The notes beneath the pieces are model-generated. The model was given only the letters and a program-made list of their open reading frames with translations. It made no database searches and was not told the origin of the DNA. The position numbers and the translations under genes are program-made. A stretch of DNA of 59,547 bases, the filler included. It is 4 parts of 4 records of this genome, joined end to end, with 100 filler letters (N's around TTAATTAATTAA, not from the genome) between each part and the next. Parts side by side here need not be neighbours in the genome. Positions count along the whole stretch, not along the records: positions 1 to 26,293 come from SRR31156797_13540; 3 more parts are not named here. One strand, 5' to 3'. Positions within the stretch are counted from its first letter, which is position 1. Each line of letters opens with the position of its first letter. Positions 9,612-41,681 of this stretch are shown one piece after another.

Positions 9612-10634
9612 ATGACTGAACACAACAATGTTCAAACCCTCAATCAGTTCATTATCCAACGTCAATCAGACCATGCGGGTGCCAAGGGAGAGCTTTCTCG
9701 TTTGTTGCATCATGTGGGGATTGCGTCTAAAATTGTAAACCGTGCGGTAAATAAAGCCGGATTGGTAGATATTTTAGGTGAACATGGAGACCAGAATGTA
9801 CAGGGGGAAGATCAGCAAAAGCTTGATGTTTTTGCCGACACACACTTTATTGATGCCTTAAAAGCTAGTGGCGAATGTGCTGCCGTTGCTTCTGAGGAAA
9901 ACGAAGACATCATTATTTTTGATGATGAATTGAGTAAAAATGGAAAATATATTTTCTGTATGGATCCGCTGGACGGTTCTTCAAATATTGATGTAAATGT
10001 TTCGATAGGAACCATTTTTTCAATTTTTGAGCGTGTATCGAAAAGAGGAGAATTGGCAACAATGGAAGATTTCCTGCAAGAAGGAACCAAGCAGGTTGCT
10101 GCCGGATATGTTATTTACGGATCATCGACCATGTTGGTGTACACTACTGGTAATGGCGTAAACGGATTTACACTCGATCCTTCAATCGGAGAATTCTGCT
10201 TGTCGCATCCTAACATTAAAACACCAAAAAACGGAACCATTTATTCCATTAACGAAGGAAATTACATCAATTTCCCTAGCGGTGTTAAAAAGTACATTAA
10301 GTATTGCCAGGAAAAAGATGCCAAGAGCAAACGCCCTTACACTTCGCGTTACATTGGTTCTTTGGTTGCCGATTTTCATCGTAACTTGTTGAAAGGTGGA
10401 ATTTTTATTTATCCGCAAACCAACAAAAACTCCGACGGTAAATTGCGTTTGATTTACGAATGCAATCCTGTTGCTTTTATTGCCGAACAAGCTGGTGGAT
10501 TAGCTACCGATGGCAATGGAAGAATTATGGAAATTAAACCAGATTCGCTTCACCAACGTGTTCCTTTCTATACCGGATCAACAAAAATGGTGGAGAAAAC
10601 AGAAGAATTCTTACACTTCTTCAACAACATCTGA
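9612..10634 (+). CDS. fbp: Fructose-1,6-bisphosphatase class 1
   Basis: [38 protein letters not shown] motifs. Confidence 0.97.
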
Positions 10635-10675
10635 AACAAGATTTTCAGAAAAAGAATTTAACACACTACTAAAAC

Positions 10676-10705
10676 AAAAGCCACTTCGTAAGGAGTGGCT
10701 TTGTT
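10676..10705 (+). terminator. Intrinsic terminator after fbp
   Basis: AAAGCCACT-loop-AGTGGCTTT followed by GTTGTATTT. Confidence 0.65.
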
Positions 10706-10914
10706 GTATTTAAAAATAGCGACTCATTCCTGAGTGTCTCACTCTTTTGTGAGGCTCTCAGTTTTTATCTTATTGATACCCGCAACTTAGAGTGAGGGCA
10801 TCAAACATTTACTAGCCTAAAATTTTTATTTTATTATAATGATTTACTAAACGAAAGAATGAACTTCGTTTTGCATTGCAGTGGAGCTTTATTAAAGATT
10901 ATTGAGCACAGTTT

Positions 10915-12003
10915 TTATTGATTATAGTTAAGATTAAATATCTCTGATTTGTCTATTTCGCTGTGGGTATTAATGCTGGACATATCGAAATTGAGAAGAT
11001 CTAAAATGTAATTTGCTAACTCGTCTTTAAAGTTTGGTTTATTTCCAACATTGTGCAATTTTCTGTTAATTGAAGCAGTAAACAAGTCCACTGCTTGTAT
11101 GAAAATACTTTTCTTTGAATCCAGAGCCATGAAATTCCCCAAAATTAAACCTTCCTTTTTCTGTGCTTGAATACGTTCTTTGATATTTTCAAGCTTTAAT
11201 AAATCGCTACCTTTTTCTTCGTTGTCAATATAAACTTGCATTAACCTTGGTAAAGGTGCACGACCAGAATCATGTTCATGCGTAATTCCCTTAAACAGTA
11301 CATGATAAGTTAAATCTGTAATAGCTTGATGTCTATCCGCAATACCTTTGTTTGAAACAATTATCGTCTTAAATCCAACATGAGGATTATGCATTAAAAA
11401 AAGCTTAAAAAACTGCTTATACTCATCAAGTTTATTTTTCGTAGCCTTATTGAAATGAAACTCATAGTTAATATTCTCCTTTTCTTTCCAATCTAGTATA
11501 GCTTTAACAGCACTATAAACAGATGATCCACCTGGAGACCACAAACTACCAACAGATAAATATTCTTGGGTTTTTCCAGATTCGTCAATATAAATGGAAT
11601 ATACAGGTACATTATCTAGCTTATCAGAAATTGCATCTTCACGATATTGTTCATCCAACATTCCGCGATACTGCTTTACTTCTTCATCAGCTTGAAAAAG
11701 CCTATATTCATTTTGTATTTTTGCACGACATCGAATTATAGAAGATTGTTTGGTAAGCTTGTAGAATTGTTGTTTGGTAATACTATTTCCGACCAAAACA
11801 TCACTTTCAAAAAGTTTCCAATATTGCCAAGAAAGTTCTTTATCCGAGTTGCGAGCCTGTGATGAATTATTAAGAATAAACGCAACCTTATCTTTCATTT
11901 GTTCAAGGTTACCACTTAAAACCTTTTCCATTAGAACTTGTCTTTCGCGTTCTTTTTTAGGTTCAAGCTCGTTTCCATTATTTTGTTCTGTCAATTCTTC
12001 CAT
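10915..12003 (-). CDS. DUF3800-family (RNase H-like fold) protein with an extra N-terminal helical/HTH-like domain
   Basis: IYIDESG near the domain start, EFHF, and C-terminal IQAVD match the DE...QxxD pattern of DUF3800. A possible own promoter TAGTTTTG lies at 12058-12051. Confidence 0.75.
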   Translation of the reverse strand: MEELTEQNNGNELEPKKERERQVLMEKVLSGNLEQMKDKVAFILNNSSQARNSDKELSWQYWKLFESDVLVGNSITKQQFYKLTKQSSIIRCRAKIQNEYRLFQADEEVKQYRGMLDEQYREDAISDKLDNVPVYSIYIDESGKTQEYLSVGSLWSPGGSSVYSAVKAILDWKEKENINYEFHFNKATKNKLDEYKQFFKLFLMHNPHVGFKTIIVSNKGIADRHQAITDLTYHVLFKGITHEHDSGRAPLPRLMQVYIDNEEKGSDLLKLENIKERIQAQKKEGLILGNFMALDSKKSIFIQAVDLFTASINRKLHNVGNKPNFKDELANYILDLLNFDMSSINTHSEIDKSEIFNLNYNQ

Positions 12004-12092
12004 GATGGCTTATATTTATCTTTCTAATTAATTATTTCATAACTATCGAACAAAACTAAATTCAACGAAGTCCATATTCTAAAGTAAGTATG

Positions 12093-12378
12093 TTTGCAAA
12101 CCAACAAAGCCCTCCCCATTTCCATCGAAGCACCTTTGCAAGCCTGCAAACCCCATTTTATTATGGTGGAGTGTAGTTTGCAAGCCTGCAAAGCATGTGC
12201 TATCGAAAAAAAATATGCCTTCCACGCGTGCAAGCCTAATTCGATTTTGGTAGAGTTTACTTTTCATGCATGAAAAGCATGTTCGACTGTGGTAGAGTGC
12301 AGTTTGCAAGCCTGCACTCCTTATTTTATGAGAAGAAAATGTACTTTGCATGCTTGCAGAGCATATTTTCCTGAAATA
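12093..12378. repeat. Degenerate tandem array, 7 units with exact 42-bp period and a 16-nt palindromic core TTTGCA-N4-TGCAAA
   Basis: Cores start at 12093, 12135, 12177, 12219, 12261, 12303 and 12345, counted directly. Confidence 0.9.
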
Positions 12379-13053
12379 TTATTCTGTTAGCTCTTCCGGT
12401 TCACTAACCACTTCTTCAACTTTTGCTTTACTCGCGGTTTTTGGGAACAAACGATCGGCGAATTTCTTTCCAAACATCTTGGCAGCATCCAAATAATTGT
12501 ATTCGTACTGCTTGCGCAATTCGGCTTGTGCCAATTCTTCATTGGCTACAGCAACTTTCACCTTATTTTCCTCTTCTTCCAATTTCTGTATGGCAGCCTG
12601 CACATCGTTTGCTGCTGCTGTAAGTGGAGCTACGTTTGCATACAGTTGGTGCGTATCTCCCAACGCTATTAGGCGCTCTTTCAGCTGCAAGCTCATGCCC
12701 AATTCCTTTGTAAAAGATGCCCGTACTATGGTAGAGTATTTCCCATCGGGGAACAGCTGAGTATAAATAGGTCGTCCCGGATTCATTCTGTCGAACTGCT
12801 TCGCCGAATCGGATACATTTCGAATAACATCATCCAAAACAGCATCTTTAAACACCAGGTTGTCGTATGCCGAATCACGGTTCTCTTTTTGTGCCAGAGT
12901 TGCAGCATTTTTCTCTTTCAGGAGATTTACCTTAGGAGCAATTGCAGTAGACAATGATTCTGCTCCCTGAGTTTGATTGCTCAAACGAATGTGGCGGTTG
13001 CTATTACTAATGTGTGTTTGCGACGACATTTTGTCGTTTAATAATTTTGCCAT
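12379..13053 (-). CDS. Uncharacterised alpha-helical/coiled-coil protein, 224 aa (LFPDG and RLFP motifs)
   Basis: Clean ORF with Ala/Glu/Lys-rich helical composition and an acidic tail. Its stop codon abuts the 42-bp array. Confidence 0.8.
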   Translation of the reverse strand: MAKLLNDKMSSQTHISNSNRHIRLSNQTQGAESLSTAIAPKVNLLKEKNAATLAQKENRDSAYDNLVFKDAVLDDVIRNVSDSAKQFDRMNPGRPIYTQLFPDGKYSTIVRASFTKELGMSLQLKERLIALGDTHQLYANVAPLTAAANDVQAAIQKLEEEENKVKVAVANEELAQAELRKQYEYNYLDAAKMFGKKFADRLFPKTASKAKVEEVVSEPEELTE

Positions 13054-13420
13054 GATTTTTTAATTTAAATGAATAAAAGTTCTCTATGATAACAAGTAAA
13101 TAAGTCTACTACTATAGATCATAAATTCCTCTCAACTCTTCAAATTCTACTAAACATCATTACTCCAACACATCCCCGACCTACTTTTTATTATGATCGT
13201 AGATTAAATTTAACAAGTTAATTATTCACAAACAAGTAATAAGCAATATTATTTTCACTAACAATACACAAAATCAGCAAAATAGATCAATCAAAACCAA
13301 AGTATTGACACTTATTAATCTTTGTCGTAATTTTAAGAAACCTACACACAACACTTCTAGCTCATATATCCATTTGTGTTTCATAATGATTCATATCATA
13401 CTCATTTAATATCCCATATA

Positions 13421-13993
13421 ATGAAAACAATGCTTCTGCCACTATTGTGTTTACTCCTTTCTGGTCCTTCCTTGGGACAGGATAAAAAGATTATCATTAA
13501 TAATATCGAATTAAAACAATCGCAAATTAACGAATTGGAATATATCTACGACATAAAACCTGAGCCTGGCAATTATTGGTACGATACAAAAAGTGGTTTG
13601 TATGGCGTTGTTGGTTATGCCTCCTTTGGCTTCATGTTTCATGGTCACGATTTTGGAGAAATCAAACAAGATGTATCCAAAGGGAACACTAATGTAGTGG
13701 TTAATGGTCGTGAGTTACCTCAAAATGAATGGCTGGTTTGGAGCTATGTACTGGGCTATTACATTCAGCCCGGAAGATATTGGTTCGATCATTTGGGCAA
13801 TGCTGGCTACGAAGGAAATCCTATCCCTACAGTAAACCTTTACTATGCAGCTCAGCAAAATCAATATATAGGACAAGGTAGCAGTGGAGACAATTTCTGG
13901 TCTACCCGATTTAGTGCTGGCAATTCCGACCGTGGAAATACACGAGGCTATGTAAGTGTTCCAGGGCATGGACCAGTTGGATATGGTTTCTGA
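13421..13993 (+). CDS. Secreted hypothetical protein with PGxYWYD / GNTxVxVNGREL motifs
   Basis: Signal-peptide-like start MKTMLLPLLCLLLSGPSLG (ATG 13421; the ORF track starts at 13376) and two internal PGxYW repeats. Confidence 0.8.
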   Translation: MKTMLLPLLCLLLSGPSLGQDKKIIINNIELKQSQINELEYIYDIKPEPGNYWYDTKSGLYGVVGYASFGFMFHGHDFGEIKQDVSKGNTNVVVNGRELPQNEWLVWSYVLGYYIQPGRYWFDHLGNAGYEGNPIPTVNLYYAAQQNQYIGQGSSGDNFWSTRFSAGNSDRGNTRGYVSVPGHGPVGYGF

Positions 13994-14209
13994 AAAGCTC
14001 CAAGTTTACAAATATCAAATTCCAAATAATAAGCGATTACATCATTGAGATCTGAAATATGTATATGCACTCATCTGATAAAGAATCATGAATTACGCTA
14101 TTCTCAAAAAAACAAAAGGATATGTAAGTATGCTCAAGCCTGAACCTGCTGGATGTGAAATGTAAAAAGTTTCGTTAGATCTAATCTAGGCTAGAGCAGA
14201 ATAAATTCA

Positions 14210-14536
14210 CTACGCTTCTAAATTTTTATACTTTATCAAGCCAAATAAAAAGAATAAACCAATAGGAAAAAATAGGAAACAAATAATTACACTGAAAATA
14301 AACTTCATTTTCGTCATTTTAAAATCCAATTGCGATTTACTCAGACTATAACCTGCCATAACACTACACATCATAATAGCACACGAAATAGGCAAATAAG
14401 AAATCAAGGCATCTAATACATTTGCAAATCCATCTTCACGACCCATAAAATATATAAATTGAGCTGCAATAAGCGAAATTCCCCATAGTATTGAGAGTAT
14501 AATTATTAATCTTGAATTATTCTGTTCTTGTTTCAT
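14210..14536 (-). CDS. Small hypothetical membrane protein (about 3 TM helices)
   Basis: 108-aa ORF with three hydrophobic stretches. Confidence 0.6.
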   Translation of the reverse strand: MKQEQNNSRLIIILSILWGISLIAAQFIYFMGREDGFANVLDALISYLPISCAIMMCSVMAGYSLSKSQLDFKMTKMKFIFSVIICFLFFPIGLFFLFGLIKYKNLEA

Positions 14537-14755
14537 AGTTCGTTATGCTTTTTATAAAATACAAGATTAAATATAGACATAAAACATATTCTAATATTAT
14601 TAAAAGTTATCTATTCATTGTTTTTTAGCTCAACGCCTTTATATCACAGTTGAGTCAAATGATAAAACAGATATATCGCCCATAGTAGGATTAATTTTTA
14701 TTTAAAGATTAAATTTTTTCTAAATTTGCCATTCAACTTAATAAGGGGTAAAAAA

Positions 14756-17700
14756 TTGGAACTGAAAGAACTTACGCAAATATTCTCTGAGCATCCGGCT
14801 CGATACAGCATTGACAATCATTTAAAAGAAACATCAAACTTTCATCTCCATTTGAAAGGGTTGATTGGTTCTTCACTTTCATTGCTGGTATCTGCCATTA
14901 GCGAACAAAATAAGCCACACTTGTTTATTTTAAACGACAAGGAGGAAGCTGCTTATTTTTATAATGATTTGTGTAATCTGGTTGATGAGAGTTCTGTTCT
15001 GTTTTTTCCATCGTCGTATAAGCGATCGGTACAATACGAAAAAACCGACAATTCCAATATCATTCTTCGTGCCGAAACACTTAACCGTTTGAACTCAGAC
15101 AAACAAACTGGTTTTATTGTCACTTTCCCCGAGGCTATTGTCGAGAAAGTTATTAGCCAGGAACAATTAAGCGAGAATACCCTAAAAATTAAGGTTGGTG
15201 AAAAATTATCACCCGAATTTGTTGAAGAAGTTTTAGTGGATTACGAATTTGAGCGTGCCGATTTTGTAGTAGAACCCGGGCAATTCTCTATTCGAGGTAG
15301 CATTATTGATATTTTCTCTTTTTCGGATGAGCATCCATTTCGTATCGACTTTTTTGGTGAGGAGATCGATTCCATCCGTATGTTTGATGTAGAGAACCAA
15401 TTGTCCATAAAAAAGATGGATCAGGTTGATATCATTCCAAACATACAGGAAAACCTGTTAAAGAATTCACGCATCTCTTTCTTAGATTTCACCCCGAAGA
15501 ATTCCATATTCTGGTGTAAGAATGTCCAATTCATTAGTGATCGCATTCAGGCAATCTATGAAAACACCATTGAAAAATTGCCGCATTTGCAATTGGGCGA
15601 TGATGCTGTTGCCTCTAAAGATTACCTGATACAAGGAGTTGAATTTATCGATCAGCTTAATGCTTATTCTTGTATAGAGTTCGGGCAAAAATTCTTTTTC
15701 CCAAGTGAAAATGAAATACAATTCAACCAAACACCACAACCTTCATTCAATAAAAACTTTGATTTGCTTGGTGAACATTTACTCAACAACAATGCAAAGG
15801 CAGAATCTAATTTTATCTTATCGGATAATCCAAAACAGATTGAACGTATCCATAATATTTTCGACGACAAAGGCATTGAAGTTGAATTTCAGGATGTAAA
15901 TCAAACCCTGCACGAAGGATTCTCGGATCGGGATTTAAGGTTGGCTTGTTTTACCGATCACCAGATTTTTGACAGGTATCACAAATTCAAGTTAAAAACA
16001 GCTAGCGTTCACAAAGCAAAAGAGGCGGTTACCTTAAAAGAGATCAACCGACTTCATCCTGGCGATTACATTGTGCATTCCGATCATGGAATTGGTCGTT
16101 TTGGCGGATTACAGAAAATTGATGTGAATGGAAAAGATCAGGAAGCAATTCGATTGGTTTATAAAGACAACGACATATTGTTTGTGAGTTTGCACTCCTT
16201 ACACAAAATATCAAAATACAAAGGAAAAGATGGATCGGCTCCTAAAATTTACAAATTGGGAACCGGTGCGTGGCAAAAACTAAAAGACAAAACCAAGAGT
16301 AAGGTTAAAGATATCGCTAAAGATCTGATCGCACTTTATGCAAAGCGTAAAGCCGAGAGAGGTTTTCAGTTCAGTCCGGATTCCTACATGCAGCAGGAGT
16401 TGGAAGCATCCTTCATTTATGAGGATACACCCGATCAGGTGAAAGCTACCAGAGCTACTAAAGAAGGAATGGAATCGCAATTCCCAATGGATAGATTGGT
16501 TTGTGGCGATGTTGGATTTGGTAAAACCGAAATTGCCATTCGTGCAGCCTTTAAAGCTGTTGCCGACAACAAGCAGGTTGCCATTTTGGTTCCTACCACA
16601 ATTTTGGCTTTTCAGCATTTCAAAACCTTTAGCGAACGACTGAAAAATTTCCCATGTCGTGTAGATTACATCAGTCGCATGCGAAAAGCAAAAGATCAAA
16701 AAGAGATTTTAAAAAACATTAAAGCAGGTCAGATCGATATACTAATAGGTACTCACCGAATTATTGGAAAGGATATTGACTTTAAAGATTTGGGATTGCT
16801 AATTGTTGATGAAGAACAGAAGTTTGGTGTATCGGTTAAGGAGAAACTAAAACAACTAAAAGTAAATGTAGATACCCTTACTTTAACAGCAACTCCAATT
16901 CCGAGAACTTTACAATTCTCCTTAATGGGGGCACGTGATTTGTCGATTATCAACACACCACCACCAAATCGTTATCCTATTGCAACCGAAGTTCACAACT
17001 TTAACGAAGATATAATCCGTGAAGCCATTTCGTATGAAGTAGAGCGAAACGGACAGGTTTTCTTTATTCACAATCGCGTTCAGAACATTAAGGAAGTTCA
17101 GGATATGATTCACAGAACAGTTCCTGGCGTTTCCACTGTTGTGGCACATGGTCAGATGGACGGACCAAAGTTAGAGAAAATCATGCTTGAATTTATCCGT
17201 GGCGATTACGATGTATTGATCGCAACAACCATTATTGAATCAGGTCTAGATATTCCGAATGCCAATACCATTATTATTAACAACGGCCAAAATTTTGGTT
17301 TGAGTGAATTGCACCAGTTGCGTGGTCGTGTAGGACGATCAAACAAAAAGGCATTCTGTTATTTGCTAACTCCTCCAATGGAATCCATGACTCAGGAAGC
17401 CCGCCAAAGATTACAGGCAATTGAAAACTTCTCGGAACTGGGAAGTGGTTTCAATATTGCCATGCAGGATTTGGATATTCGTGGAGCAGGTAACCTATTA
17501 GGTGGCGAACAATCTGGATTTATCACAGATATTGGATACGAAACCTATCAGCGAATCTTGAACGAAGCCATGCTTGAATTAAAAGAGAATGAGTTTAAGG
17601 ATGTGTTTGCCGACGAAAAGAAAGAAGAGGAAAAGGAACTGATTCGTTTTATTAACGATTGTCAAATAGATACCGATTTAGAAATACTTTTCCCTGAAGA

Positions 17701-37976: not shown

Positions 37977-40900
37977 TGCGCGCTCTCATCCATGGCCGTA
38001 CTGGACATTGCCCACAGTTGCGTTCCCGTGGGGAACGCCTTCGTCTGGCTGCACAGCCTGGCCGTACTGGCCGGCGGCGTTTTCTTTGCCATGGTGTGGT
38101 TCCCGGAGAAAGATATCTCCATGGAGAGCGCACTCACCGCTTCCGGGGCAATCGTTCTGATTGCCGCATTGGTTGCCATATTCTCCGCCGCCTATCCGGA
38201 GAGTATTCCGGTAATGGCTGAACAGGGACACTTCACCATGTTGGCCGACCTGCTGAACTTTCTGGGGGGAGGTCTGACCCTTCTGGCCGCTTTAAACTTC
38301 GCCCTTCGTTACGCCGGGGGAAGAGATGAGGAAGATCTGCTTTTTCTCATCCTGGCACTTTTTTTCGGCTTGCCGGGCGTCCTGTTTCAAATGTCCGGCA
38401 TCTGGGAAGCCGGATGGTGGTTCTGGCACGCCCTCAGACTCGCGGCCTACGGCATTGCTTTCTGGCTGGCCTTGCGCACATACCGAAACTCCGAGAATGA
38501 AATGTTGCAGGCCCAGTCGGAACTGAACGCCCTGTTTCATGCCGCAGTGGACGGCAAACGGCTGATCGACAGGAACTTCAACCAGGTGAGGACAAACGAC
38601 CTCTTTACCGCCATGCCCGGTGCAAATATGCCATCCGGAAAAGGGTTGAAGTGTTATGAAGTGTTCCCGGGGCCAATCTGCCACACGAGCAAATGTTCCA
38701 TGAAACTGTTGGAGACCGGCGCCCTCAACAAGATCGAGAAGGAAATAACGTTAACGGGAAAAGACGGCGAAAAACGCCACTATATGATGACCGCCATACC
38801 GCTTATGGGGGCAGACGGCGTCTTTCGCGGCATTGTGGAGAGTTTCTGGGACATCACCAAAAGGAAAACGGCGGAAAGATTCCTGGAGGAGCAGGACGCG
38901 CTCAAAACCGCCCGGGTGGGACTTTCAAACGTAATGCGGGGAGATCCCGATGCGCAAGCCCTATGCCGCAGAATCATCACCTTTCTGTGCGAATATCTAC
39001 AAGCAAACATCGGCCTCATCTACCTGGCCGAAAATGACGGGACGCTCAAACCGGAGGCCGGTTACGCGTACCATATGGACAAAAGAGACATTGCGGCAGT
39101 CCATCCCGGCGAAGGCCTTGTGGGGCAGGCCGCACTGGGCCGGGAGGATATGGCTGTTACGGATATTCCGGAAGACCATTTAAATCTCGTTTCAGGCCTG
39201 GGCCATGTGATACCGCGGAATATCTACCTGAAACCGGTGGTCCATGAGGGAAAAACCGTGGCGGTCATTGAAATGGGAACCCTTGAAACCTTCACCGATT
39301 CCCACCGCAAATTTTTGGCTCTGGTCAATGACGACATGGCTCTTGCCATTGACAGCGCCAAAAGCAGAGAAAAATTAGCCGTTTTGCTAGTAGAGTCCCA
39401 GCGGCTTTCCGAGACGCTCCAGTTGAAACAGGAAGCGTTGAAAGCCGCCAACGAAGAGCTGGAACAGCAGAGCGAGGAATTGCAATCGGCCAACGAGGAA
39501 TTGGAACAGCAAAGCGAGGAGTTGCGGGCCTCCAACGAAGAACTGGAAGAGAAATCGGAAGCCCTGGAACAGCAAAAGAAGGAAATGGAGAAGGCCAAAG
39601 GCGAAGTGGAAGGAAAGGCCCGGGAACTGGCGTTGGCCGGAAAATACAAGTCGGAATTCCTGGCCAACATGAGCCATGAACTGCGAACCCCCCTGAACAG
39701 CCTCCTCATACTGGCCAAACTGCTGAAGGACAACGAGGAAGGGAACCTCACACAGGAGCAGGTGGAAAGTGCCGGAATTATCCACGGCAGCGGCCAGGAC
39801 CTGCTCTTCCTAATCAACGAAATCCTGGATCTCTCCAAAGTCGAAGCCGGAATGATGGAAGTGCATCTGGAAGCGGTTTCCTTGGAAACCCTTGTGGAGA
39901 GTCTGCGCCGGCAGTTCCGAAGGGTCGCCATGGAAAAGGGACTGGCGTTCCACATTATCACGGCCCCTCATGTGCCACCATCCATCCGCACCGACAGACA
40001 ACGGCTCGAACAGATCCTGAGGAACCTTCTCTCCAATGCTTTCAAATTCACAAAGGAGGGCGCCGTAACCCTTGAAATCCTTCGACCGGATAAACAGACC
40101 CTTTTTGCAAACGATCACCTGACATGCGCCAATACCCTGGGATTCTCGGTACGAGATACCGGCCCCGGCATTCCCGGGGAAAAACGGGAGGCCATCTTCA
40201 AAGCCTTTCAGCAAGTGGATGGATCGGTCAGTCGCCGCTATGGGGGCACGGGACTGGGGCTGAGCATATCACGAGCACTGGCCCATCTCCTGAAGGCTGA
40301 AATTCAATTGGCCGGAAAAGTGGGGGAAGGGAGTATTTTCACCCTGTACCTACCCCTTGAACGGAGGCGGGACACGCCGGAAAAAGCCCTTTCCGCCCCA
40401 TCCGGAAAAGATGCCCCCAAACGCCGCGCCGTGCGCCCGGAAAAACCGGTACAATCCAAAAGCCCGGGGGGGCATTTCCTCCCCGACGACCGCCATGCCA
40501 TCAAGGAAGGGGACCGTTCGGTTCTGATCATTGAAGACGACGCCCGGTTCGCAAAGATTCTCATGGGCCATGCGCGGAAAAAAGGCTTCAAATGTTTGAT
40601 GGCCGGGGACGGCGCCGGCGGTCTGAGACTGGCGGCCGCTTATAAGCCCAGTGCCGTCATTCTGGACCTGGGTCTGCCGGATATTGACGGTACCACCGTT
40701 CTGGACGCTTTGAAATACGGCCTTGAGACGCGCCATATCCCGGTACATGTCATGTCCGGCCGGGAACGTACACCCGATATTATGCAAAAGGGCGCCATCG
40801 GATTTTTAACCAAACCCATTGAGGCATCGGATATTCAGAAGACCTTTGATCGGATCGGCAGTATTCTGGAAACCACGGTAAAACGCATCCTGGTGGTGGA

Positions 40901-41681
40901 GGACGACGAGAACAGCCGGAAGGCCGTTGAAACACTGGTGGCCACGGAAGGGGTTCAGATCACCGGCGTAAACAGTGGAGAGGATGCCCTGAAAATAATA
41001 TCCGTTCAGAACTTCGATTGCATCATTCTGGACCTGGGCCTGCCGGACATGAGCGGGTTCGACCTTCTTCGCACCCTTAATGAGGATCCCCGGCTATCGC
41101 TGCCGCCGGTCATTGTCTACACGGGCAAAGAACTCACGGACATGGAACTTCGCGAACTGAGCCAGTACACCAGCAAAGTCGTGGTCAAGGGCGCCAACTC
41201 GCCGGAACGTCTTCTGGACGAAGTATCCCTCTTTTTACACACGGTGGAATCGTCCCTGCCGGGGGAACAGCAACGCATATTGCGCATGCTGCACGATCCG
41301 GAGAAACTACTGCACGGCAAGAAAATCCTTCTGGCGGACGACGATCTCCGCAACAGTTTCGCTCTTTCCAAGGTTTTGAAAAATGCCGGGCTCACCGTGG
41401 TCATGGCGGAAAACGGGCAGGTCGCCTTGGAGGTCCTCGAAAAAGAGGATGTGGATATGGTCTTGATGGACATCATGATGCCGGTCATGGACGGCTATGA
41501 AGCCATGGAACGGATCCGTCGTCAGCCCCGCTTTAAGGATCTTCCCATGGTGGCCCTCACGGCCAAAGCCATGGTGGAGGATCGGACCAAATGCATTGGG
41601 GCCGGTGCCAACGACTACCTGGCCAAACCGGTTGACACGGCCAAACTATTGTCGCTCATGAGGGTATTGTTATACCGATGA
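37977..41681 (+). CDS. Hybrid sensor histidine kinase (multi-TM input, PAS, GAF, coiled coil, HisKA, HATPase, 3 REC), probably 5'-truncated
   Basis: FLANMSHELRTPLN, NLLSNAFKFT, DTGPGI, GGTGLGL and three receiver domains. The frame is open to the contig edge upstream of ATG 37992. Confidence 0.93.
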   Translation, partial: CALSSMAVLDIAHSCVPVGNAFVWLHSLAVLAGGVFFAMVWFPEKDISMESALTASGAIVLIAALVAIFSAAYPESIPVMAEQGHFTMLADLLNFLGGGLTLLAALNFALRYAGGRDEEDLLFLILALFFGLPGVLFQMSGIWEAGWWFWHALRLAAYGIAFWLALRTYRNSENEMLQAQSELNALFHAAVDGKRLIDRNFNQVRTNDLFTAMPGANMPSGKGLKCYEVFPGPICHTSKCSMKLLETGALNKIEKEITLTGKDGEKRHYMMTAIPLMGADGVFRGIVESFWDITKRKTAERFLEEQDALKTARVGLSNVMRGDPDAQALCRRIITFLCEYLQANIGLIYLAENDGTLKPEAGYAYHMDKRDIAAVHPGEGLVGQAALGREDMAVTDIPEDHLNLVSGLGHVIPRNIYLKPVVHEGKTVAVIEMGTLETFTDSHRKFLALVNDDMALAIDSAKSREKLAVLLVESQRLSETLQLKQEALKAANEELEQQSEELQSANEELEQQSEELRASNEELEEKSEALEQQKKEMEKAKGEVEGKARELALAGKYKSEFLANMSHELRTPLNSLLILAKLLKDNEEGNLTQEQVESAGIIHGSGQDLLFLINEILDLSKVEAGMMEVHLEAVSLETLVESLRRQFRRVAMEKGLAFHIITAPHVPPSIRTDRQRLEQILRNLLSNAFKFTKEGAVTLEILRPDKQTLFANDHLTCANTLGFSVRDTGPGIPGEKREAIFKAFQQVDGSVSRRYGGTGLGLSISRALAHLLKAEIQLAGKVGEGSIFTLYLPLERRRDTPEKALSAPSGKDAPKRRAVRPEKPVQSKSPGGHFLPDDRHAIKEGDRSVLIIEDDARFAKILMGHARKKGFKCLMAGDGAGGLRLAAAYKPSAVILDLGLPDIDGTTVLDALKYGLETRHIPVHVMSGRERTPDIMQKGAIGFLTKPIEASDIQKTFDRIGSILETTVKRILVVEDDENSRKAVETLVATEGVQITGVNSGEDALKIISVQNFDCIILDLGLPDMSGFDLLRTLNEDPRLSLPPVIVYTGKELTDMELRELSQYTSKVVVKGANSPERLLDEVSLFLHTVESSLPGEQQRILRMLHDPEKLLHGKKILLADDDLRNSFALSKVLKNAGLTVVMAENGQVALEVLEKEDVDMVLMDIMMPVMDGYEAMERIRRQPRFKDLPMVALTAKAMVEDRTKCIGAGANDYLAKPVDTAKLLSLMRVLLYR

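Follow-up and report, generated by a model that had tools for sequence, protein, structure and literature searches.

The window, the whole stretch of DNA that was analysed (59,547 nucleotides), carries on its minus strand a gene for a 224-amino acid (aa) protein, and 3' of this gene, on the same strand, lies an array of seven dyad-symmetric units that keep an exact 42-nt register with zero indels (Table 1). An earlier note, made from the letters of the window, had reported this period, had written out the seven core sequences, and had placed the start of the array right at the stop codon; the period and the cores are as written, read on the plus strand, and the placement is nearly exact, as the extended first hairpin ends 8 nt away from the stop codon. 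Each unit is built from an A-rich flank, a variable outer arm, a conserved 6-bp inner arm, and a 4-nt centre, followed by the mirror image of these parts, and the sequence TGGTRGAGT recurs three times in phase, as had been noted. Self-identity of positions 12093-12386 is 0.55 at a lag of 42 and 0.60 at a lag of 84, compared with 0.27-0.29 at lags of 21, 41, 43, and 63, and the value at 84 exceeds that at 42 because two kinds of unit alternate. When the whole window was scanned in 2372 sliding windows of 250 nt, z>=4.2 was reached in 16, eleven of which form a single run over the array with a period of 42 or 84, the other five being isolated and of different periods. The motif TTTGCA-N4-TGCAAA, with at most one mismatch, occurs at three sites in the window against a chance expectation of 0.53, and all three lie within the array. 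Tandem Repeats Finder, run on the window, did not report the array, because its units are only ~55% alike, and an Rfam scan of positions 10000-15000 at E<=1 returned nothing relevant to it.

Table 1. Positions of the gene, the array, and other features of the window
Feature	Position	Strand	Description
Palindromic array	12080..12373	.	seven dyad-symmetric 42-bp units; register, periodicity, covariation
Array units, gene-sense order	12332-12373, 12290-12331, 12248-12289, 12206-12247, 12164-12205, 12122-12163, 12080-12121		
Seven 16-nt cores	starts 12093, 12135, 12177, 12219, 12261, 12303, 12345; span 12093-12360	+	
First (gene-proximal) unit	12335-12370	-	extended inverted repeat, 16-nt arms, 81% complementary, then T-run
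Gene of 224-aa protein	12379-13053	-	open reading frame; unnamed family of stand-alone proteins of ~220 aa
Conserved 5' leader (~140 nt) and putative promoter near 13200-13220	13054..13220	-	conserved blocks in seven orthologous upstream regions
DUF3800 gene	10915-12003	-	between array and fbp
90-codon frame	12079-12351	-	open across array
59-codon frame	12094-12273	+	open across array
Second 42-nt-period repeat	39438-39548		2.6 copies, 78% matches (Tandem Repeats Finder)
1229-aa open reading frame	37992-41681	+	contains the second repeat

The association of gene and array was measured in relatives by scanning one genome per species and taking the best 80 of 95 relative-encoding loci, where W denotes the window's own locus and L-numbers those of relatives. 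These loci come from Marinifilaceae, Marinilabiliaceae, Prolixibacteraceae, Cyclobacteriaceae, other Cytophagales, and metagenome-assembled genomes (MAGs) labelled Prevotellaceae, with one MAG each labelled Akkermansia, Chitinivibrionales, and Polyangiaceae. Linkage was scored as the strongest autocorrelation period, between 15 and 90 nt, over the 500 nt that follow the stop codon. The best period 3' of the gene was 40-44 or 81-86 bp in 74 of 76 loci, that of the window included, with z>=4 in 62. The same periods were best in only 17 of 75 loci for the 500 nt upstream (z>=4 in one), in 19 of 79 for the coding sequence (none), in 13 of 64 for the region 1.5-2 kb downstream (one), and in 11 of 67 for that 1.5-2 kb upstream (one). 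The protein-plus-array system proposed in the earlier note thus passes the test set there, since the arrays 3' of homologous genes diverge in sequence and yet hold to a fixed period. Left outside the 76 are L032, with an early stop, L053, with no stop within the locus, and loci with fewer than 400 nt downstream, L002 among them; L032 has an 84-nt period after its full-length frame, and L002 a period of 84 with a z of 5.1. The two exceptions to a downstream array, L070 and L080, carry an array of 41-42-bp period upstream of the gene instead. Arrays with at least five units number 62, with a median of 7 units (range 5-11) and a start at a median of 25 nt past the stop codon, and in many relatives the period is 41 bp. 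Array sequence varies between lineages and paralogues, and what is kept is the period, the unit number, and the dyad symmetry. In a single case, in the genome G002, only the last ~55 codons of one paralogue remain, and after this remnant there is a lone hairpin in place of a periodic array. Because clustering of all open reading frames (ORFs) in the relatives' loci (79-81 loci) revealed no conserved neighbour gene, the module comprises the gene plus the array. Gene and array are one conserved, self-contained module that is real and widespread.

The inner arms of the units, TTTGCA/TGCAAA in the window, are elsewhere TGTAA/TTACA, TTACAA/TTGTAA, TTCAGAC/GTCTGAA, or others, with cores that range from AT-rich to GC-rich (L079), and in consensus units centred on the dyad the inner arm is joined to an outer part that is likewise mirrored and ends A-rich on one side and T-rich on the other. 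For covariation, ten arrays of the TTTGCA class supplied 69 units, which were aligned without gaps. Over a 14-bp stem around the 4-nt centre, 74.1% of cells are paired, compared with 67.4% in shuffled sets (0 of 500 as high) and 29-47% for slid partners, and cells changed on both sides of the stem number 102, against 58 in shuffles (0 of 500), a kind of count that is inflated by related rows. The outer eight stem pairs are unit-specific yet self-complementary; therefore, much of what had been called a 26-nt interval, correctly seen as variable but partly related, is stem extension. Two cores of the window, CTTCCA..TGCAAG and TTTTCA..TGAAAA, carry compensatory changes as the earlier note described, and dyad symmetry with covariation holds across the family. 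The same is true of its remark that the most degenerate core is the one farthest from the gene, since in the 62 arrays the first units have 8.56 of 15 pairs and the last 5.92, with the first better than the last in 41 arrays and worse in 17. Odd-numbered units, counted from the gene, have ~8.2-8.6 of 15 pairs and even-numbered units ~7.7, which matches the 84-bp super-period and suggests that the real repeat is a pair of unlike units.

The array is under purifying selection. Its identity exceeds the third-codon-position identity of the adjacent gene in 17 of 20 related pairs, as in W and L001 (0.94 vs 0.85), L003 and L004 (0.91 vs 0.74), and L058 and L068 (0.91 vs 0.66), and the DNA past the array is unalignable in most pairs (~0.45-0.5). 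Gaps in the array alignments are often exactly 42 nt, so that arrays change by whole units. The units of W, L001, and L002 stand in one-to-one correspondence, and this orthology is therefore one of vertical descent and not of spacer turnover.

One to three full copies of the module are present in each relative's genome, and each paralogue has a different core. In a 5.6-Mb genome, seven of the eight matches to the core of one paralogue fall in that paralogue's own array, and on this ground repetitive extragenic palindromic (REP) elements and bacterial interspersed mosaic elements (BIME) were rejected as an identity for the units. The AT-rich TTTGCA core has scattered matches with one mismatch, 36 against 7 for a control pattern, a difference that is not interpretable. 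Within 4 kb to either side, unit-like sites outside the array are absent from 59 of 62 loci, the exceptions being L026 and L027 and array edges; apart from L026 and L027, the scan likewise found no operator-like copy of the unit near the gene. In these two loci a lone unit-like site lies ~3.2 kb past the gene start (locus position ~7190, plus strand), with 32.4 and 24.8 bits, where scores elsewhere are 0-17. A tblastn search with the protein against collections of plasmids (72,556 records) and phages gave zero matches.

The 224-aa protein matches no family in Pfam, NCBIfam, or PADLOC, its PHROG rows are weak (best E 0.0052), and the 76 aligned family members and 12 further relatives are likewise without a family match. 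A word-indexed search found 63 relatives, whose source names are hypothetical proteins of Marinifilum, Ancylomarina, and Labilibaculum, and a profile search of 1.84 billion representatives found 492 clusters (50% identity) at E<=0.001. The 150 clusters listed are mostly of ~215-235 aa plus shorter fragments, with a match in a single stretch in all but one, and the evidence against longer, fused forms is weak, a search for them having scored none at E<=0.001. AlphaFold2, given the 76-sequence alignment, confidently predicts a long four-helix bundle (pLDDT 90.8, pTM 0.76) with helices at residues 11-27, 32-90, 114-130, and 136-194, two of them of 59 residues, and an acidic tail, residues 208-224, that is disordered. 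No helix-turn-helix, ribbon-helix-helix, ParB, or Nop fold was seen for the protein among the fold matches listed, and a profile search of PDB sequences returned coiled-coil noise only (best E 0.14). In the ESM Atlas, the homologue P0009 falls with unnamed clusters only, with DUF6261 assigned at 0.87 on 32% of the members of one cluster. The relative P0110, 245 aa long, is extended at its N-terminus, and the extension just passes the cut-off of 23 bits for the IS200-like Y1 transposase family (23.1 bits, E 8.6e-5), a borderline match that may be an artefact of gene calling.

The arrays show no sign of selection at the level of RNA, and no strand bias. Across the 62 arrays, G.T and A.C mismatches in the stems number 636 and 645, with G.T commoner in 31 arrays, rarer in 28, and equal in 3; the counts are 99 vs 95 in the 69 aligned units, and 58 vs 66 by a local-stem method. 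Folding z-scores of the sense and antisense strands of 33 arrays differ in no consistent way, and for the array of the window the sense strand folds at -106.6 kcal/mol (z -5.9), with a z of -4.05 for the antisense. Conservation between orthologous arrays peaks at -16..-14, -6..-4, +3..+7, and +15 from the dyad centre, and information content within 28 arrays has the same peaks, its strongest Fourier period being 10 (0.131, and <0.06 outside periods 9-11). A conserved patch about every turn, together with units 41-42 bp (four turns) apart, places all the sites on one face of the helix.

A second family has arrays of the same kind. PF19775 (DUF6261) has 18 matches in G001, 10 in G002, and 12 in G003, and an array with a period of 40-42 bp (or 80-85 bp) accompanies 20 of the 28 DUF6261 loci fetched from these genomes, in 20 of 20 cases upstream of the gene. 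These loci resemble the module in their period, their dyad units, their locus-specific sequences, and their all-helical protein with an acidic tail, whereas their array is upstream and that of Bacteroidota members of the 224-aa family downstream. The DUF6261 protein, of ~245 aa, is predicted to be all-helical, with its first two helices like those of the 224-aa family and the rest more segmented, so that the predicted helix pattern agrees in the first third only. Some units in the DUF6261 arrays hold two dyads 21 bp apart, and upstream of one DUF6261 gene (L100:350-1100) there are two sub-arrays, mutually inverted, of ~7 and ~5 units. The PF19775 model has no match at E<=1 among the 76 members and 12 further relatives, and hhalign gives probabilities of 10.9% and 14.6%; homology of the two families is therefore not established.

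We tentatively favour, at a little under even probability, an explanation in which the adjacent rod-like protein binds cooperatively to dyad sites that are phased along one face of the DNA. The array would be a row of about seven dyad-symmetric DNA sites facing one side of the helix, with conserved positions near -15, -5, +5, and +15 from each dyad centre and units four turns apart. The helical rod protein, dimeric or in a higher oligomeric state, would bind cooperatively to its own array, and binding would build a long nucleoprotein complex confined to its own locus, the complex being locus-specific because each paralogue has its own array sequence. As a guess at function, such a complex could control expression of the module itself, or serve as a local structural mark or barrier on the chromosome; plasmid-type partition is not its function. 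The earlier note had offered phased DNA sites four helical turns apart as the second of two readings, and this fits the better of the two, in view of the absent wobble bias, the lack of a folding difference between sense and antisense strands, the ~10-bp recurrence, and the upstream arrays of L070 and L080. Also in its favour are the near-confinement of core matches to each paralogue's own array, the G002 remnant, the DUF6261 parallel, and the precedent of sopC for the layout. The tie of gene to array, the constant period, the purifying selection, the covarying dyads, and the absence of strand bias are shown, whereas we infer DNA as the site of action, the neighbouring protein as the binder, and the role of the complex.

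A number of observations weigh against binding of the protein to duplex DNA. Outer arms that are unit-specific and self-complementary are more directly explained by hairpins than by a dimer on duplex DNA, and a DNA reading therefore needs cruciform extrusion or template-switch homogenisation; also, downstream of the gene is an unusual place for an operator. The protein has no recognisable DNA-binding fold. Its model has no Foldseek match in the PDB at E<=0.001, and VIA-align ranks helical bundles of sensor proteins highest (McpZ Z 10.7, TorS 9.9, McpS 9.2), of which even 10.7 falls below the Z of roughly 13 that is typical noise for helical proteins according to the tool. The isoelectric point of the family has a median of 6.6, which is near neutral, and of 8.4 after removal of the tail. 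Furthermore, in RNA libraries (four runs) a 429-nt contig, X17, covers 12164-12570, that is, five units and the 3' end of the gene, and another, X15, covers 12116-12256 within the array. The presence of the array in RNA-library contigs, continuous with the 3' end of the gene, makes an RNA role possible, with the qualification that these contigs give neither strand nor transcript ends and that DNA carry-over is possible; loose letters at 12164 in X17 are presumably sequencing adaptor, and no strand or end was inferred from them. On an RNA reading the array would be a structured 3' untranslated region, with about seven hairpins in the mRNA of the gene that are bound or processed by the protein, or that stabilise or terminate the transcript. 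Such a role would suit the RNA-library contigs, the location of the array on the strand of the gene and a short distance past its stop codon, the covariation of the 14-bp stems, the stable sense-strand fold in the window, and the resemblance of the first unit to a hairpin plus T-run. We nevertheless consider it unlikely, given that G.U pairs are not in excess over A.C on either strand, that the antisense strands fold about equally well, that Rfam has no match, and that the array is upstream in L070, L080, and every array-bearing DUF6261 locus. Between DNA and RNA, the evidence leans towards DNA, though not decisively.

It is also conceivable, although we think it quite improbable, that the array acts without the neighbouring protein and is merely co-inherited with the gene, for example as curved or cruciform-prone DNA, a stack of bidirectional terminators, an insulator, or the platform of some other host factor. 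The units do consist of an A-tract, a palindrome, and a T-tract, the 224-aa protein has no known nucleic-acid-binding fold, and similar arrays stand beside DUF6261 genes, whose homology to the family is not established. Repeats of constant size with no known partner are moreover on record, as the accessible text of Subirana and Messeguer describes bacterial tandem repeats of 20-21 and 52 nt with constant size and variable sequence, and proposes for them either a protein polymerising on DNA or a transcribed RNA (PMC8161180). The arrays studied here share the constant unit size and variable sequence of those repeats, and differ in their unit of 41-42 nt (twice 21) and in their link to a gene family, for which that text has no counterpart. 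A single host factor would, however, face very different cores, AT-rich to GC-rich; the link to one gene family holds in 74 of 76 loci from several phyla while the other neighbours change; terminators and insulators require no fixed 41-42-bp ruler; and in the single case of G002 an eroded gene and its array were lost together. Least probable of all is that the array is a minisatellite without function or codes for a 14-residue repeat, the latter named in the earlier note as an outcome that would refute its reading. Two frames do run open across the array of the window, but the array is conserved above the level of third codon positions and is tied to one gene family, and a coding repeat fails because a reading frame cannot be maintained over the 41-bp period of many relatives; for the family as a whole this explanation is refuted. 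Hardly more credible, and largely refuted, is the other reading of the earlier note, in which the units would yield CRISPR-like or TIGR-like guide RNAs that serve a new effector. Its attraction is that regularly spaced palindromes adjoin a gene of unknown function and that the gene-distal unit is the most degenerate, as it is in CRISPR arrays. Unlike the repeats and spacers of CRISPR-Cas, however, the cores differ between units, the intervals are interrelated and in part stem extensions, and units are orthologous from strain to strain with no turnover in W, L001, and L002. The earlier note was correct that there is no cas gene, as no Cas family of Pfam, NCBIfam, or PADLOC was found in the two genes beside the array, and blastn with the array (it had proposed one with the variable intervals) gave nothing meaningful, with no phage match and one chance-level plasmid match (E 0.9). 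As for TIGR-Tas, the available portions of PMC12045711 and 10.64898/2026.09.09.750476 describe Nop-domain proteins, box C/D nucleotides, and 36-nt dual-spacer units or stems enclosing a spacer pair, in stem-loop arrays that may be upstream or downstream of the gene. The module resembles those stem-loop arrays, as there described, in its tandem units, its variable but palindromic stems, and its small adjacent protein. It differs in that the covarying arms are adjacent, around a 4-nt centre, and do not enclose or flank a spacer pair as in TIGR (PMC12045711, in the part available); arms across the 26-nt interval mismatch wherever cores differ, there are no dual spacers flanked by stems, and inheritance is vertical, unit by unit. 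The earlier note had seen no Nop-domain motif, and the searches gave none either: neither the window protein nor the other members of the 76-sequence alignment matched a Nop family, and no Nop, Tas, or small nucleolar ribonucleoprotein chain is among the fold matches listed, although a Nop fold is still conceivable. Of 423 units, 3 contain a box-C-like heptamer, and none of the arrays has as many as three.

Among known systems the closest layout is that of plasmid F, where sopC lies after sopB. In the accessible text of PMC3177203, sopC comprises 12 repeats of 43 bp, and SopB binds the 16-bp inverted repeat that each of them contains. Tandem repeats of ~42-43 bp with a 16-bp inverted repeat, beside a protein gene, are common to both, and binding is what we would infer for the 224-aa family. 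The module departs from sopB-sopC in that its protein belongs to no ParB family and there is no ParA or ParB among conserved neighbours; it is also chromosomal and not plasmid-borne, its units are unlike each other within an array, and a genome has two to three diverged paralogous modules. Type III toxin-antitoxin systems (ToxIN) likewise have a protein gene beside tandem repeats, of ~36 nt, but there the array comes before the gene, its repeats are almost identical, and the toxin is not known to be an all-helical bundle, whereas the units of the module are diverged palindromes. BrickBuilt of Porphyromonas gingivalis was rejected, as the available text places its 23-nt repeats inside a MITE (miniature inverted-repeat transposable element; PMC4596501). 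Full-text searches of the literature, which cover main texts and not supplements such as those of PMC5737381 and PMC8161180, found no description of the link between gene and array, nor did one of the arrays upstream of DUF6261 genes turn up in print, and as far as these searches reach, the protein-plus-array module is undescribed.

The surroundings of the module are varied, and include mfd, fructose-1,6-bisphosphatase, S8 subtilases, sulfatases, a tyrosine integrase (8 Cytophagales loci), and others. Across three genera, one orthologous group (W, L001-L010, L012, and L023) keeps a syntenic place with mfd on one side and fbp on the other. In the window a DUF3800 gene (Pfam 2.9e-8), which PADLOC lists as the candidate defence protein PDC-M04A (3.4e-20), lies between the array and fbp; it is a singleton among the ORFs of 79 loci, and in other genomes its slot is either empty or taken by a gene for a C-5 DNA methylase, a CarboxypepD_reg protein, or a scramblase-like protein. 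A connection with DUF3800-associated RNA motifs, which are described in the available part of PMC5737381, was rejected because the DUF3800 gene is a strain-specific insertion and not a conserved neighbour; there was no relevant Rfam match either. The alignment of W, L001, and L002 stops within the last core of the array, and since similarity between the strains ends there, insertions may have a hot spot at the distal end of the array. The tyrosine integrase, of the phage-integrase family, is near the module in eight Cytophagales loci, including L038, L039, L046, L048, L052, L077, and L078, and is directly upstream and divergent in several; some copies of the module may therefore sit at the edge of integrative elements. 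Far from the module, a second repeat of 42-nt period lies within a 1229-aa ORF, and is therefore probably a coding repeat of 14 residues, unrelated to the array.

Upstream of the 224-aa gene there is a conserved 5' leader, of which an RNA-library contig covers 13011-13155, preceded by a TTTG / TAnnTTTA pair that we take, by eye and against the Bacteroidota consensus, to be promoter-like. The four RNA libraries have no contig over 10800-12073 or 13166-13500, and the former gap is not a valid silent control, because the DUF3800 gene may be absent from those strains. A consensus scan was uninformative, as promoter-like sites numbered 14 (9.7 expected) and terminator-like sites 3 (1.4 expected). 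It scored the first unit of the array as terminator-like, but on the plus strand; the orthologue of this unit in L002 pairs perfectly over 9 further positions, and the first unit may double as the terminator of the 224-aa gene.

The family of 492 clusters has no name, Pfam model, or solved relative, and few ties of a gene to a non-coding element measured here are as strict as that of this family to its array. This link turns an orphan protein into a testable hypothesis, namely that it binds its own array. If binding proves true, the protein would represent a new nucleic-acid-binding fold, it would explain a class of tandem repeats with constant size and variable sequence, and the paralogous modules would be sets of naturally orthogonal protein-site pairs. 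More broadly, it is possible, although we hold it to be doubtful, that the module belongs to an undescribed class of chromosomal modules in Bacteroidota and some other phyla, in which a rod-like all-helical protein reads its own hairpin-forming dyads with a four-turn ruler. Such a class would include the much larger DUF6261 family, with 10-18 copies per genome and the array on the other side of the gene, and would form mutually orthogonal, locus-specific nucleoprotein assemblies or ribonucleoproteins, which would bring both a novel way of recognition and an additional layer at which chromosomes or transcripts are marked. Judging by the parallel with DUF6261, such loci may number dozens in a Bacteroidota genome.

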